Shown here: piece after piece, positions 18,684-24,168 of the stretch | Layout of the letters: each line of letters opens with the position of its first letter | How positions within the stretch are numbered: position 1 is the first letter of the stretch | Assembly (NCBI RefSeq): GCF_964355755.1 | Contig: NC_092673.1 | Coordinates: 248,001-312,000 of the forward strand | From: Antedon mediterranea | Taxonomy: Eukaryota; Animalia; Echinodermata | Length of the DNA stretch: 64,000 bases | Direction of reading: 5' to 3' | Notes under the pieces: model-generated | Databases searched by the model: none | What the model was told of the DNA's origin: nothing | What the model saw: only the letters and a program-made list of their open reading frames with translations | Position numbers and translations under genes: made by a program

Positions 18684-21600
18684 TCAGCTTATCTTGTTAT
18701 TGATGACAGAAAAGCTGTAGTAAAGTGTTATCAACGCTTCCTAGATTAAAACAAAACAAATTTTGCGTTACTTTTATTTCTACAAGTGTAGGGACAGTGA
18801 TGCTAGTAATACTTGTACGAGTAACTTACCTTTTCAATATTCATTTCATGTATAATACTCCACAACGTTGTATGTTCTTCAATAATTTCGTCGTCTTCAC
18901 TGCACACAATATCCACCTGTATTTAAAATATAATGTTGTAGTATATGTGAACTGCTAATGTATGTGTGTAGGTCAGTATACACATAAGTAGAGATAGACA
19001 TTGGTATGCCGAAAGAACATTCGTCACATATGTCATTTAGTCAAAATTCATCTGTACAATAGATAAAACTAAGCCAGGACCTTGGTTGGTCATAGCATCA
19101 ATCAAGGGCTTATCTCATCGTTGTAGAAGTGCATGGACTGATGATGCAATTATTAGGAAACCAAACTTACTATAATATCATCACTTAATGAAAGCTTTTT
19201 TGTTAAAAACCGCTGTAAATGTTTGATGGTGGCACGACCTGGAACGCGTACAAATTTCTTGGAAAGCGGTTGAATGGGCCTGCATTCAACAGATGCACCT
19301 GAGAATTCCAACATCAGTGAAACTAACTCATCTACTGGACTAGCAGACCGAGTTGAAGCATGTTTATCAGGAGATCCTATAGTAAAAGAAAGATATTGTT
19401 TGGTAAGTGTACATCTATTCATAATCTAGTAAAATTACAAGCAAATGGCTCTCAGATGCCCTAATTCTTCTGATAATATATTCTGAGTCATTCTCCTGCC
19501 TCTCTAATGACACTGATATAACATACTAATTTAATAATCATTTACTGTACCTTCATTACTTTCAGGCATAGGTAGGTTGCGAGACTTGTAAAAGGCCACA
19601 GCTTTTAAATGTTCCTCTAAAATTGTAATAAATCAATACAAATATTAAATAAATTGGCAAAAATATTGGAATAAAATAATTTTCCAAATTGTATATTAAT
19701 TTTTTATGTAACATTATTTTACCAATTGACTGGATTCAGCTTGTGCTGCTTTAACTAATAAACAATAATAGCAATTACCTTTTGGAATTTGTGGCAATAT
19801 TTTATAAATGATATCTTGTTTGGTTCTGTCAAACCTGAAATATAATTAGTTACTCAAGTTTACAAAATTTTCTGATTTATAAATAAATTCAGCAGACCAA
19901 ATCAAATTACTGTAGTCGCATTCATATTAAGGTGTAATGTCCAAGCTATTTGACCGCTCCATTATTAAAAAATTGCCATTTTACTGTTTAAACTTGCCTT
20001 ATGTTACTCAATGGATTTGTTTCATGGATCAAAATATCACATACTGGACAAGTAAAATGTCGCTGGATATGAAACACAATGCAACTTTTACAAACTGTGA
20101 AAGAGAAATAGCCTTTATACAATGAATACAATATGATATAAAATTGTGTTGTCATAAATGGCATAAGATAAAATACTCAAGTAAACATAACATTTAAATC
20201 TCTATTACATAACATGATAGCTGATGAATATGTTTCTAAATCTATTATTATAACATAAATATTCTACCTGACATACGGTTACCAATAGTTTCAAAGACAG
20301 GTGTGACCATTAGGGAAGAGCCATCTAATTATACATAGCCATCCAATTCAGGGAGGGGTTTGGAAGTGGCTAGTTCTGCCCTACCTTCTTTAATGTTTTG
20401 TATTTCATACAAATTCTCTCATTTCAATGTACTCATAAATTGTAGACTTCACTTACAAGTGTGAAGACATTCTGTAACCGTGCTAGCATCAACAAGGTAA
20501 CCACCACACAAGAAACAGGTTATATACTGGTTAATTGATGTCAACTTAACAAGAATTGGCTGAAAACAAACAAAACTAATTAAAAAACACAAATTTCTTT
20601 CTTATTGGTTTATTTTTCACATATTAATAATAACAATACATATAAATAAATTTCATTTATTTCGTCAATTAAAAACATAATAATACAATACAAAAAAACA
20701 CCACCAAACCCATGACGGTGACAGGATTAAACAAAACCCATGACGGTGACAGGATTAAACAAAACCCATGACGGTGACAGGATTAAACAAAACCCATGAC
20801 GGTGACAGGATTAAACAAAACCCATGACGGTGACAGGATTAAACAAAACCCATGACGGTGACAGGATTAAACAAAACCCATGACGGTGACAGGATTAAAC
20901 AAAACCCATGACGGTGACAGGATTAAACAAAACCCATGACGGTGACAGGATTAAACAAAACCCATGACGGTGACAGAATTAAACAAAACCCATGACGGTG
21001 ACAGGGTTAAACAAAACCCATGACGGTGACAGGATTAAACAAAACCCATGACGGTGACAGGATTAAACAAAACCCATGACGGTGACAGGATTAAACAAAA
21101 CCCATGACGGTGACAGGATTAAACAAAACCCATGACGGTGACAGGATTAAACAAAACCCATGACGGTGACAGGATTAAACAAAACCCATGACGGTGACAG
21201 GATTAAACAAAACCCATGACGGTGACAGGATTAAACAAAACCCATGACGGTGACAGGATTAAACAAAACCCATGACGGTGACAGGATTAAACAAAACCCA
21301 TGACGGTGACAGGATTAAACAAAACCCATGACGGTGACAGGATTAAACAAAACCCATGACGGTGACAGGATTAAACAAAACCCATGACGGTGACAGGATT
21401 AAACAAAACCCATGACGGTGACAGGATTAAACAAAACCCATGACGGTGACAGGATTAAACAAAACCCATGACGGTGACAGGATTAAACAAAACCCATGAC
21501 GGTGACAGGATTAAACAAAACCCATGACGGTGACAGGATTAAACAAAACCCATGACGGTGACAGGATTAAACAAAACCCATGACGGTGACAGGATTAAAC

Positions 21601-24168
21601 AAAACCCATGACGGTGACAGGATTAAACAAAACCCATGACGGTGACAGGGTTAAACAAAACCCATGACGGTGACAGGGTTAAACAAAACCCATGACGGTG
21701 ACAGGGTTAAACAAAACCCATGACGGTGACAGGATTAAACAAAACCCATGACGGTGACAGGATTAAACAAAACCCATGACGGTGACAGGATTAAACAAAA
21801 CCCATGACGGTGACAGGATTAAACAAAACCCATGACGGTGACAGGATTAAACAAAACCCATGACGGTGACAGGATTAAACAAAACCCATGACGGTGACAG
21901 GATTAAACAAAACCCATGACGGTGACAGGATTAAACAAAACCCATGACGGTGACAGGATTAAACAAAACCCATGACGGTGACAGGATTAAACAAAACCCA
22001 TGACGGTGACAGGATTAAACAAAACCCATGACGGTGACAGGATTAAACAAAACCCATGACGGTGACAGGATTAAACAAAACCCATGACGGTGACAGGATT
22101 AAACAAAACCCATGACGGTGACAGGATTAAACAAAACCCATGACGGTGACAGGATTAAACAAAACCCATGACGGTGACAGGATTAAACAAAACCCATGAC
22201 GGTGACAGGATTAAACAAAACCCATGACGGTGACAGGATTAAACAAAACCCATGACGGTGACAGGATTAAACAAAACCCATGACGGTGACAGGATTAAAC
22301 AAAACCCATGACGGTGACAGGATTAAACAAAACCCATGACGGTGACAGGATTAAACAAAACCCATGACGGTGACAGGATTAAACAAAACCCATGACGGTG
22401 ACAGGATTAAACAAAACCCATGACGGTGACAGGATTAAACAAAACCCATGACGGTGACAGGATTAAACAAAACCCATGACGGTGACAGGATTAAACAAAA
22501 CCCATGACGGTGACAGGATTAAACAAAACCCATGACGGTGACAGGATTAAACAAAACCCATGACGGTGACAGGATTAAACAAAACCCATGACGGTGACAG
22601 GATTAAACAAAACCCATGACGGTGACAGGATTAAACAAAACCCATGACGGTGACAGGATTAAACAAAACCCATGACGGTGACAGGATTAAACAAAACCCA
22701 TGACGGTGACAGGATTAAACAAAACCCATGACGGTGACAGGATTAAACAAAACCCATGACGGTGACAGGATTAAACAAAACCCATGACGGTGACAGGATT
22801 AAACAAAACCCATGACGGTGACAGGATTAAACAAAACCCATGACGGTGACAGGATTAAACAAAAGCAAACTGAATTGCTGTACAAATTAATAAATACAAC
22901 GGGACTTACTTCTAGATCTATATTTATTTTTCGAAATTTGAGTAGTGGTTTTAGATTCAAGGCTTTCTTCAATTTGAGTGCCTTATTCTGTTGGTAGTTG
23001 TGTGCACGATTGATTGCTGACCTTGCTGTTTTATGAACATTTATCAATCTGTAATTAATAAGTCTCATATTATAAGAAGCAAAACACCAACACTTATATT
23101 CCTCAATTTCTATAAGTTTATAAATAAGCAGCGCTTCACATACTGTCACAACATTGGTTGAAATAAAAAGTCTTTATAATTTGTTTTTGTTTATTATGAA
23201 GTGATTATATTAGTATAGCAGTACTGAGTATAGTAAGTCATCCAAAATGTTAATATCTACTAATTTTAAATTCATGGTGTGTACAAACTATTTGGGTTGT
23301 CGTCATCTTTTGAGGTTGATTATTTATTGTACCTTTTATTTTGACTAGATGGCTGCTTCTTAGAAAATAAATGCTGCGATGGTTGTTCACTGGACGAAGT
23401 CCATGGGAATATAGATGGAATTGCATGTGGCCGGAGATAAGCTTTTCCTGAGGATGTCCGCCAAAATGAATCGTTTGTGAAGTGGTTTGAACATATAACG
23501 GTATAGTCTGCATTATAATACTATAAAAAAGGGGAAAAAATATGTAGGGCCTATCTATTTAATATAATCATCTATTTAAAAAATGATATTTTACAATTTG
23601 TAAACAACGAAAACATTTAACATTTTAAGACATTACAATAACCAGCCCAGAACTCTCTCTTGTTTGTAAATGAATACCTTCACATCAGTCAGTGTGCTTA
23701 TTAATATTATTTATGGATAACTGGTGAAACGCCAGTTGAGACATTCTTATATGTTACGAATAGACTTCAGCATGCGTTGCATTTATGTCCGCTTCATAAC
23801 ACGGTCGACAAGGCCTGAACGGTAGTTCTGTTTCGCACCTGTCTTGTTTTACTCCAAATTTGATAACTAAAGACAGGTGCGAAACGGAACTGGCGCCCAG
23901 GCCTGGTTGATCTTGTCATGAAGCGGACATTAAACGCAACGCATGCGACATAGGTACTGTAGATAGGCCTAGCATTAGGCCTAGAGGCTTTCACGTTTCA
24001 TTATACTAAAAGATTAATATATAAAATACCAGCCTCGTAATCAATTTTAGAAAGTGCAAGCCACTTTCTAAGGACATTTTCGTCTCTAGGAAATCGGTGC
24101 AATGATATATCTTTATTGCTTCTTTTTGATTTTTTGCAACCATGAATTCCACACACTCGCCATCCCAT
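18684..24168 (-). CDS. PCGF6: THAP zinc finger-PCGF6 fusion protein (THAP-linker-RING-RAWUL), ~374 aa, 10 exons
   Basis: Exons 24168-24030, 23507-23333, 23048-22910, 20559-20457, 20094-19998, 19834-19779, 19616-19551, 19376-19171, 18916-18830, 18740-18684 sum to 1125 nt with compatible phases. [90 protein letters not shown] (PCGF6-type). THAP: CGIHGC..LHRFP..W..ICSNHF..AIPSIF. The RING/RAWUL part is near-certain; the THAP linkage is predicted. Confidence 0.85.
20706..22864. repeat. 28-bp tandem satellite, ~77 near-identical copies, in intron 3 of THAP-PCGF6
   Basis: Unit CATGACGGTGACAGGATTAAACAAAACC. Rare variants: ACAGAATT (~20975), ACAGGGTT (~21005, and three adjacent copies at ~21648-21706). 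Confidence 0.98.
23770..23946. mobile_element. ~177-bp foldback/MITE-like hairpin in THAP-PCGF6 intron 1
   Basis: GCATGCGTTGCATTTATGTCCGCTTCAT pairs with ATGAAGCGGACATTAAACGCAACGCATGC; inner GTTCTGTTTCGCACCTGTCTT pairs with AAGACAGGTGCGAAACGGAAC. No clear TSD. Confidence 0.7.

Follow-up and report, generated by a model that had tools for sequence, protein, structure and literature searches.

A PCGF6 gene of the crinoid Antedon mediterranea carries THAP exons that are spliced in frame ahead of its RING and RAWUL exons. The gene lies on the minus strand of the window, a 64,000-nucleotide stretch of the genome (contig NC_092673.1, positions 248,001 to 312,000). We estimate a probability of roughly 0.6 that its mRNA gives rise to one 377-aa protein, composed of THAP, helical linker, RING and RAWUL, which likely binds DNA motifs itself and brings RING1-dependent H2AK119 ubiquitylation. 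How Polycomb finds its targets is a long-standing question, and a core PCGF subunit that reads sequence would be the simplest targeting solution. Antedon PCGF6 is a directly testable system in this respect, with one small domain in one protein to be set against H2AK119ub in echinoderm embryos.

Gene structure and spliced RNA

The initial annotation, made from the DNA alone, had proposed that three minus-strand exons encoding a THAP domain lead in frame into the RING exon. The peptides that it quoted are present at the given places, and the arrangement is confirmed by a single 1465-nt spliced contig from run X1, which covers ten minus-strand exons from 24252 to 18466 with unbroken record positions. 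The features of the locus, in window coordinates, are:

Exon 1, 24034..24252, minus strand: 5′ UTR from at least 24252, start codon ATG at 24168-24166, residues 1-45 with the first half of THAP (C6, C11, P27, W36); RNA contig piece 24252-24034, joint 24034/23520; GC donor then at 24033-24032
Intron 1, 23521..24033, minus strand: GC-AG type, joint ends CT..GC on the plus strand
Exon 2, 23333..23520, minus strand: residues 46-108, second half of THAP (C55, H58, F59, AIPSIF box at 78-83, from Pfam and the human THAP1 alignment) and start of the linker; RNA contig piece 23520-23333
Exon 3 (linker), 22910..23048, minus strand: RNA contig piece 23048-22910, phase 0 end, GTAAGT donor at 22909
Intron 3, 20560..22909, minus strand: 2350 bases, missing from the RNA contig
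Exon 4, 20457..20559, minus strand: first half of RING ([20 protein letters not shown]...CLHT), RNA contig record 576-678, Pfam zf-C3HC4_2
Exon 5, 19998..20094, minus strand: second half of RING, from the RNA contig piece and the model; GC donor then
Exon 6, 19779..19834, minus strand: RNA contig piece
Exon 7, 19551..19616, minus strand: RNA contig piece
Exon 8, 19171..19376, minus strand: start of RAWUL, RNA contig piece, Pfam RAWUL E 2e-5 for the exon alone
Exon 9, 18830..18916, minus strand: continuation of RAWUL, RNA contig piece
Exon 10, 18466..18740, minus strand: end of RAWUL, stop TGA at 18686-18684, 3′ UTR to at least 18466; RNA contig piece 18739-18466
HIG1-domain gene, 24287..24992, plus strand: two exons, head-to-head neighbour of PCGF6, ATG at 24287, exon 2 at 24820-24992

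Eight exon joints are listed directly for the RNA contig (2 + 6). The ninth, 22910/20559, is given by the abutting record positions 575/576, where the loose-end letters on each side are those of the other exon. Depth in run X1 is zero in the intron bins, except at a repeat in intron 1, while the DNA run X2 covers these stretches unspliced. Run X1 stems from another study and another individual than the DNA runs, and its contig carries 10 single-base differences; five of the eight coding differences from the window are synonymous, including the sole one within THAP. The RNA support consists of one assembled contig from one run, whose RNA nature was guessed by the index and has the spliced form as its sole backing. 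Contigs of this kind show individual junctions rather than a single molecule carrying all ten exons, and rare isoforms are lost from them.

Two of the junctions predicted from the DNA, 23333/23048 and 22910/20559, are found in the RNA contig, whereas the predicted 24030/23507 is replaced by 24034/23520, which bounds a GC-AG intron. The corrected exon 1/2 junction therefore yields a product of 377 aa instead of 374, reading ...[16 protein letters not shown]... across the join, and splice phases of 0-2-0 instead of 1-2-0. Both RefSeq isoforms share acceptor 23520 with the RNA contig, and the productive form uses the GC donor after 24034; translation from the first ATG of the X2 splice form ends after 48 aa. 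The intron after exon 5, at 19997, is also of GC-AG type. The GTAAGT donor after exon 3 and the lack of an ATG in the RING exon (20559-20457), both pointed out previously, are seen in the sequence, and the reading frame is interrupted by a TAG six codons upstream of that exon.

Intron 1 contains an inverted repeat with 64-nt arms (23782-23933), which is a high-copy element: the depth at 23850-23897 is 6136, compared with 297 in the DNA run. Intron 3 is mostly a 28-bp minisatellite of 77.1 copies (20706-22864, Tandem Repeats Finder). Exon 2 of the neighbouring HIG1-domain gene matches Pfam HIG_1_N with E 4.2e-15. Its ATG and the outer end of the PCGF6 RNA contig are 35 bases apart, and the two genes therefore probably share a bidirectional promoter.

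Protein domains and family placement

The window translated over the RNA junctions is identical, letter for letter, to the 377-aa RefSeq protein XP_071949252.1; exon 8, within RAWUL, is 100% identical to an Antedon mediterranea RefSeq protein. THAP, RING and RAWUL all score above their Pfam cut-offs in this one protein, as the initial annotation would have it: THAP at residues 6-83 (E 4.7e-16, 59.8 bits against a cut-off of 23.9, profile 1-87), RING at 169-207 (zf-C3HC4, 33.1 bits, cut-off 21) and RAWUL at 302-368 (PF16207, 40.7 bits, cut-off 33.5). Exons 1 and 2 even exceed the THAP gathering score of 23.9 singly, with 32.4 bits (profile 1-38) and 26.4 bits (profile 51-87), respectively; for exon 1 alone, E is 1.6e-7 when the slightly longer exon originally drawn is used.

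The THAP hallmarks that had been read from the DNA are borne out. The domain aligns with human THAP1 over residues 5-83 (E 3e-11), with C6, C11, C55, H58, P27, W36, F59 and P80 matching, and the C-terminal box reads AIPSIF at 78-83, compared with AVPTIF in THAP1. The C2CH consensus of THAP domains (PF05485) is C-X2-4-C-X35-53-C-X2-H, and the spacing of the zinc ligands in Antedon is C6-X4-C11-X43-C55-X2-H58. The eight RING ligands (C169, C172, C185, H187, C190, C193, C204, C207) do not vary among the 25 PCGF6-type sequences compared. An AlphaFold2 model of the protein has a mean pLDDT of 80.1, with values of 83-90 over residues 21-80, and predicts a linker helix at residues 104-137. By Foldseek, the modelled RING superposes on the RINGs of BMI1 and PCGF5 (TM by target 0.89-0.95) and the modelled RAWUL on that of PCGF1 (4hpl_B, TM by target 0.80); with the whole multi-domain model as query, the 50 matches listed did not include a THAP chain.

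The gene belongs to the PCGF6 family, as judged from sequence comparison. The best named matches of its protein are PCGF6, and in a 52-row tree it falls into a 25-row clade (ultrafast bootstrap 100, SH-aLRT 99) that also takes in all six vertebrate rows named PCGF6 and all other THAP-bearing forms, while the BMI1, PCGF1-like and PCGF3 rows lie outside; the tree holds no row named PCGF5. The PCGF6 identity proposed at the outset thus agrees with both, and the RefSeq name "PCGF3-like" is contradicted by the tree, a point for the annotation of the gene.

Distribution and origin of the fusion

The initial annotation had spoken of "this lineage". THAP and RING proteins of the PCGF6 clade are also predicted in two species of Diadema, Lytechinus variegatus, Holothuria, Capitella, Paralvinella and Nerophis ophidion. 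By these predicted sequences, THAP-PCGF6 is not lineage-specific and spans echinoids, a holothuroid, two annelids and one pipefish. A partial PCGF6-like protein of the crinoid Anneissia japonica opens with a homologue of exon 3 joined to the RING. As to the suggested novelty, no published description of a THAP-PCGF architecture was found in the literature searched, but proteins built in this way are already in public collections, RefSeq isoform X1 of the Antedon gene among them.

An intron, of phase 0 in Antedon, is kept by PCGF6 genes directly before the leading strand of the RING. First exons upstream of it may thus be exchangeable without loss of frame, which could be how the fusion arose. 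A cellular THAP gene and a transposon are equally possible sources of the Antedon THAP exons, and no transposase ORF of at least 110 aa adjoins exons 1-3. The spread over echinoderm classes and annelids, together with a THAP on a fish PRC1.6 subunit, suggests one of two histories: an old self-targeting PRC1.6 that was lost in vertebrates, or repeated selection wiring THAP readers to PRC1.6. Either would inform the evolution of Polycomb recruitment.

A tentative extension, which we consider possible but somewhat doubtful, is that PCGF6 has been a repeated acceptor of THAP domains, the conserved intron before the RING having let upstream THAP genes or P-element-derived THAP exons be spliced on in several independent events, in crinoids, echinoids, holothuroids, annelids and one pipefish. 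Together with the zebrafish THAP-E2F6, PRC1.6 would then parallel, on the Polycomb side, the KRAB-zinc-finger and host-transposase fusion systems, having interchangeable readers fixed to an H2A ubiquitin ligase and possibly aimed at the sequences of the donor transposon.

Proposed function and comparison with known systems

By analogy with its family, the THAP of Antedon PCGF6 would bind DNA sequence-specifically, such binding being known from solved THAP1-DNA complexes. The RING-RAWUL part would pair with RING1 and RYBP like other PCGF proteins; this pairing is seen in solved PRC1 structures. The fusion might then replace or supplement recruitment by the partners MGA/MAX, E2F6/DP and L3MBTL2. 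That vertebrate PRC1.6 is recruited through partner DNA-binding proteins, as the initial annotation stated, is in line with the portion of PMC9397058 available, which gives Max, Mga, E2f6, Dp1 and L3mbtl2 as examples.

It is quite improbable that we are dealing with a conjoined or read-through transcript, in which an independent THAP gene on the promoter shared with HIG1 is spliced accidentally or at a low level into PCGF6, the working protein starts from a THAP-less first exon not seen so far, and the fusion protein is without a role. Both Lytechinus variegatus (isoform X2, 231 aa) and Nerophis ophidion (isoforms X4 and X5) are indeed predicted to make, alongside their THAP forms, THAP-less isoforms that start from first exons of their own and hence have separate N-termini. 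The close relatives of Nerophis ophidion have 251-aa forms only, and exon 3, with its helix and a near-HCF-1 motif, resembles the central part of a THAP1-type gene. Because such isoforms are predicted in these two species, a minor THAP-less form may also occur in Antedon, and the contigs would have dropped a rare variant. However, the sole RNA path seen into the Antedon RING exon enters from exon 3, at a word depth of 75.8, and both RefSeq isoforms begin in exon 1. The RING exon is unable to start translation alone; a THAP-less start is visible neither in its sequence nor in the RefSeq isoforms nor in the X2 splice form. Furthermore, the linker-to-RING join recurs in Anneissia japonica, and the fusion proteins of the Holothuria cluster derive from contigs of 2.2-2.4 kb, which are too short for an intron-bearing gene and are therefore likely transcripts.

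If the fusion protein is made, its THAP could have ceased to be a sequence-specific reader and now serve for protein contacts or as a structural zinc module, or persist by neutral drift, with PRC1.6 targeted by partners as in vertebrates. The THAP parts are 25-42% identical between all lineages and their linkers are unalignable, while the PCGF part is 73% identical between Diadema and Lytechinus; within Diadema, THAP differs by 6% and the PCGF part is identical. Such fast evolution of THAP and linker could mean weak constraint. On the other hand, DNA-binding domains that shift targets usually show fast change in their DNA-contacting loops. Antedon retains the four zinc ligands and the four invariant residues, every fused protein scanned passes the Pfam THAP cut-off, and the model is confident over residues 21-80, so that we regard the loss of DNA reading as unlikely. 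Very improbable indeed is a protein that acts mainly as a THAP1-like transcription factor, recruiting HCF-1 and dimerizing through its linker helix, with RING-RAWUL used outside PRC1. The sequence AHNY at 123-126 (AHHY in Anneissia), which lies in the predicted long helix, is reminiscent of THAP1, which combines a THAP with an HCF-1-binding motif and a coiled coil. Nevertheless, the consensus of that motif is [DE]HxY, which AHNY misses at the first position; a scan of Antedon and 7 further proteins (Anneissia plus 6 fused forms) found no [DE]HxY. The AHNY motif is absent from all six of the other fused proteins checked, and RING and RAWUL are conserved as in any PCGF6.

The preferred reading, a PCGF6 that reads DNA itself, can be set beside several known systems. 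Vertebrate PCGF6 (MBLR, PRC1.6) shares the clade (100/99) and the RING and RAWUL body of the Antedon protein, being 40-44% identical over about 55% of the Antedon query; among the tetrapod and cartilaginous-fish rows named PCGF6, the protein searches found none with PF05485, and where vertebrates have an N-terminal extension, Antedon has an 83-residue THAP and the helical linker. Human THAP1 (2KO0/2JTG) has a similar THAP, with the C2CH ligands and the P, W, F and P common to both, but it is a stand-alone factor with neither RING nor RAWUL, and AHNY departs from the consensus of its HCF-1 motif. In C. elegans, CTBP-1 is mentioned as a THAP protein in the accessible part of bioRxiv 10.1101/2021.02.01.429122. 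It is a fusion of a THAP with a chromatin corepressor, but the effector is CtBP and not an E3-ligase subunit. The CTBP-1 THAP is reportedly the subject of work by Nicholas et al. in 2008. The fish E2F6 with a THAP that the initial annotation invoked is likewise cited there for zebrafish (bioRxiv 10.1101/2021.02.01.429122, in part). Compared by description only, zebrafish E2F6 also places a THAP on a PRC1.6 subunit, but on one that already binds DNA rather than on the PCGF core. In PRC1.1 (PCGF1 with KDM2B), the reader, KDM2B, is a separate subunit directed to unmethylated CpG islands, whereas the Antedon reader would lie within the PCGF polypeptide; PRC1.1 is likewise a non-canonical PRC1 linked to DNA by a zinc-finger reader, according to the text available of PMC9397058. 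Finally, in the host-transposase fusion genes described in the available part of Cosby et al. (bioRxiv 10.1101/2020.05.07.082677), transposase DNA-binding domains are spliced to host exons, and Antedon PCGF6 resembles them in having a transposase-related DNA-binding domain joined to host exons by splicing.

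Spliced RNA and gene structure at the locus

The gene lies on the minus strand of eukaryotic, AT-rich DNA (G+C about 33%) and comprises ten exons, with the stop at 18684: exons 1-2 encode a THAP domain, exon 3 a linker, exons 4-5 a RING and exons 8-10 a RAWUL domain. Searched individually against Pfam, exon 1 matches THAP (E 1.6e-7, profile 1-38), as does exon 2 (E 1.2e-5, profile 51-87), exons 4 and 5 match the two RING halves (E 0.0064 and 0.022), and exon 8 matches the start of RAWUL (E 2e-5, profile 1-26). The exon 8 translation has 100% identity to a RefSeq entry from the crinoid Antedon mediterranea; the cluster of this protein comprises two isoforms, X1 (XP_071949252.1, 377 aa) and X2 (XP_071949253.1, 370 aa), both named "polycomb group RING finger protein 3-like". 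Minus-strand translation recovers the peptides that the initial annotation reported for the three upstream exons and the RING exon; the latter indeed lacks an ATG and is preceded, six codons upstream, by an in-frame TAG.

A search of sequencing runs returned five runs from two studies. In four of them, possibly including the source of the assembly, 97-98% of the sampled words are present, while run X1 (distinct from isoform X1) contains 26% and was taken to be RNA as a guess. One run X1 contig of 1465 nt (word depth 75.8), placed on two repeat-free stretches flanking the intron 3 minisatellite, covers all ten exons, as follows:

24252-24034 (-), contig piece, record positions 30-248
23520-23333 (-), contig piece, record positions 249-436
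23048-22910 (-), contig piece, record positions 437-575
20559-20457 (-), contig piece, record positions 576-678
five further contig pieces, record positions 679-1191
18739-18466 (-), last contig piece, record positions 1192-1465

Eight exon joints are listed outright for this contig, and the ninth, 22910/20559, follows from the abutment of record positions 575 and 576. At the loose end past 22910 the letters match the RING exon start in reverse complement, and at the one past 20559 they match the end of exon 3 apart from one difference. The depth of run X1 is zero in the intron bins, except at the high-copy inverted repeat of intron 1. The DNA run X2 (distinct from isoform X2) covers the first stretch entirely and the second except for its last 22 bases (to 20678), unspliced. 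The spliced contig and the zero intron depth therefore indicate that run X1 holds spliced RNA of the PCGF6 gene; the contig is proof of each junction rather than of one molecule with all ten exons, and conceals rare isoforms. Since ten single-base differences from the window are listed, the RNA comes from another individual. The 29 letters at the 5′ end of the contig, beyond 24252, have no match in the window at up to three mismatches and may represent an upstream exon outside it, a leader or an assembly tip.

Among the junctions proposed in the initial annotation, 22910/20559 and 23333/23048 are present in the contig, and 24030/23507 is replaced by 24034/23520. The rejected junction is absent from the contig and from both RefSeq isoforms. 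On the minus strand, the part skipped between 24034 and 23520 starts with GC and ends with AG. The gene has nine introns, two of which are of this GC-AG type, with donors at 24033-24032 and 19997-19996 (-), the second after exon 5. Translated across the contig junctions, the window gives RefSeq isoform X1 exactly. The corrected protein reads ...[16 protein letters not shown]..., its length becomes 377 aa instead of the 374 aa obtained with the earlier junctions, and the splice phases become 0-2-0 instead of 1-2-0. Isoform X2 uses a GT donor after 24030, four bases downstream of the GC donor, with the same acceptor at 23520 and thus a shifted frame; its RefSeq start is the ATG at 24143. Because the frame from the first ATG (24168) ends after 48 residues in this splice form, isoform X2 is probably minor or unproductive.

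Eight of the differences between RNA and window are coding, of which five are synonymous, including the single one in the THAP domain; the three replacements fall in the linker (two) and the C-terminal tail (one). This sample of eight differences is too small to prove constraint.

Other features of the locus are:

20706-22864, minisatellite, 28-bp unit in 77.1 copies with 99% matches, occupying most of intron 3
23782-23933, inverted repeat in intron 1, 64-nt arms, 83% complementary, 24 nt spacing
24287-24992 (+), HIG1-domain gene of two exons (Pfam HIG_1_N E 4.2e-15 in exon 2), head to head with PCGF6
3262-3597 (+), RhoGAP-domain open frame (Pfam E 1.6e-16), presumed exon of a gene next to PCGF6 or elsewhere nearby
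50028-50100 (-), tRNA-Arg (CCT) gene, the sole tRNA found within the window

The near-perfect minisatellite copies suggest a recent expansion. The inverted repeat has a DNA-run word depth about 20 times that of its flanks, occurs in the RNA run as well, and is likely a high-copy MITE-like element. With 35 bases between the outermost PCGF6 base in the RNA contig and the ATG of the HIG1 gene, the two genes likely have a bidirectional promoter.

Domain content and PCGF6 identity

On the 377-aa isoform X1, all three domains score above their Pfam cut-offs:

residues 6-83, THAP, 59.8 bits (E 4.7e-16, whole profile; cut-off 23.9)
residues 169-207, RING (zf-C3HC4), 33.1 bits (cut-off 21)
residues 302-368, RAWUL, 40.7 bits (cut-off 33.5)

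The solved human THAP1 domain can be aligned to residues 5-83 (E 3e-11). The hallmarks noted earlier hold in this alignment: C6, C11, C55, H58, P27, W36, F59 and P80 stand opposite their THAP1 equivalents, and the AIPSIF box is aligned with AVPTIF of human THAP1. The spliced RNA thus encodes a PCGF6-family protein with an intact THAP domain. An AlphaFold2 model built on a 25-row alignment has a mean pLDDT of 80.1, with 83-90 for residues 21-80, confident RING and RAWUL domains, and a long helix at 104-137, in exon 3. In Foldseek, the RING matches those of BMI1 and PCGF5 (TM by target 0.89-0.95) and the RAWUL that of PCGF1 (TM by target 0.80); no THAP chain is among the 50 rows listed, for which the whole multi-domain model was the query.

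The predicted exon 3 helix carries AHNY at residues 123-126 (23018-23007, -), which reads AHHY in Anneissia japonica. The HCF-1-binding motif of THAP proteins is [DE]HxY, to which AHNY is similar without matching it; the resemblance hints at a THAP1-like gene as the donor.

The best named matches of the Antedon protein are PCGF6, with about 176 bits for vertebrate PCGF6 compared to 139.5 for solved PCGF1 and 134.4 for solved BMI1. In a maximum-likelihood tree of 52 rows and 240 columns, from which a 50% fill threshold removed the THAP columns, the Antedon protein and its Anneissia relative fall in a 25-row clade with support of 100/99. This clade contains all six tree rows named PCGF6 (vertebrates) and all THAP-bearing forms, together with hemichordate, asteroid and nemertean PCGF6-like proteins. 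The BMI1, PCGF1-like and PCGF3 rows lie outside it, and the tree has no row named PCGF5. This placement supports the initial assignment to PCGF6 against the RefSeq name.

Fused forms in other species and their origin

THAP and RING, and in most cases RAWUL too, were confirmed by Pfam in the following database proteins (P-numbers are handles for individual entries):

Diadema antillarum, P0004, 406 aa
Diadema setosum, P0122, 407 aa
Lytechinus variegatus isoform X1, P0132, 375 aa
Holothuria leucospilota and members of its 90% cluster, P0277, P0134, P0281 and P0282, 376-446 aa
Capitella teleta (annelid), P0138, 340 aa
Paralvinella palmiformis (annelid), P0214, 399 aa
Nerophis ophidion (pipefish) isoforms X1-X3, P0126, P0124 and P0009, 360-403 aa

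Rather than being confined to one lineage, the architecture is thus predicted in echinoids, a holothuroid, two annelids and a pipefish as well. The contigs behind the other Holothuria-cluster members measure 2.2-2.4 kb, which leaves no room for a gene with introns, so these members are likely transcripts. Annotated forms lacking THAP include Lytechinus pictus, L. variegatus X2 (231 aa) and Acanthaster planci among echinoderms, two hemichordates, two nemerteans, Nerophis lumbriciformis, Entelurus, and every other vertebrate PCGF6 among the matches listed. Since annotation readily overlooks upstream exons, a model lacking THAP is weak evidence of true absence. A profile search with seven fused proteins gave no new fused forms (PF05485 in 3 of the 120 matches listed, all already known), and THAP is in none of the ESM Atlas clusters listed. 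The library of 50% representatives, in a search of which the Diadema protein did not come up, may hide fused members in THAP-less clusters.

Across 24 rows, the gene tree requires a minimum of five switches between THAP presence and absence. Pairwise identity of the THAP parts is 25-42% throughout, apart from the two Diadema species (94%), and no alignment is obtained for the linkers; identity of the PCGF parts tracks relatedness (Diadema vs. Lytechinus 73%, Capitella vs. Paralvinella 47%). Against five other fused THAPs, the Antedon THAP reaches 31-40 bits, and against that of Paralvinella it gives no score, compared to 46.7 bits against human THAP1 and up to 56 bits against one unit of a giant multi-THAP protein, its best-scoring THAP relative. 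These giants (P0133, P0135, P0136, P0140, P0174 and P0189) are 3700-5700 aa long; the representative search matched 20-29 THAP stretches in them, and a local THAP profile scan as many as 38. Such a pattern fits repeated capture of different THAP domains. A single old fusion with rapid change thereafter would fit as well: between the two Diadema species, the THAP already diverges by 6%, with an identical PCGF part. The scores and identities themselves neither support nor exclude a common origin. The isoform pairs of Lytechinus and Nerophis part within 1-2 residues of the Antedon exon 4 start, so PCGF6 genes appear to keep an intron directly before the RING leading strand (phase 0 in Antedon), a position that favours easy exchange of upstream exons.

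Proposed function and relation to known PRC1.6 targeting

Taken together, the THAP-PCGF6 fusion is real, expressed and more widespread than initially thought. In the titles and abstract starts of papers on THAP together with PCGF6, other PCGF proteins or PRC1.6, we found no description of the fusion. Gahan and colleagues, in a preprint on PCGF phylogeny (10.1101/2020.03.18.997064) that includes Capitella among its species, do not use the term "THAP" in the main text, nor does PCGF, polycomb or RAWUL appear in a survey covering transposon-derived factors (PMC10027918). Within the reach of these searches, the fusion is undescribed in the literature, in agreement with the initial annotation; the fused proteins are already in public sets under automatic names.

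By analogy with their families, the THAP domain would read a short DNA motif, the RING would pair with RING1, and the RAWUL would bind RYBP-type partners. Such a complex would be expected to deposit H2AK119ub where the THAP domain binds. In mammals, targeting is attributed to Max, Mga, E2f6, Dp1 and L3mbtl2 (PMC9397058). Among the THAP proteins cited elsewhere is zebrafish E2F6 (bioRxiv 10.1101/2021.02.01.429122), and a connection of THAP with PRC1.6 thus recurs.
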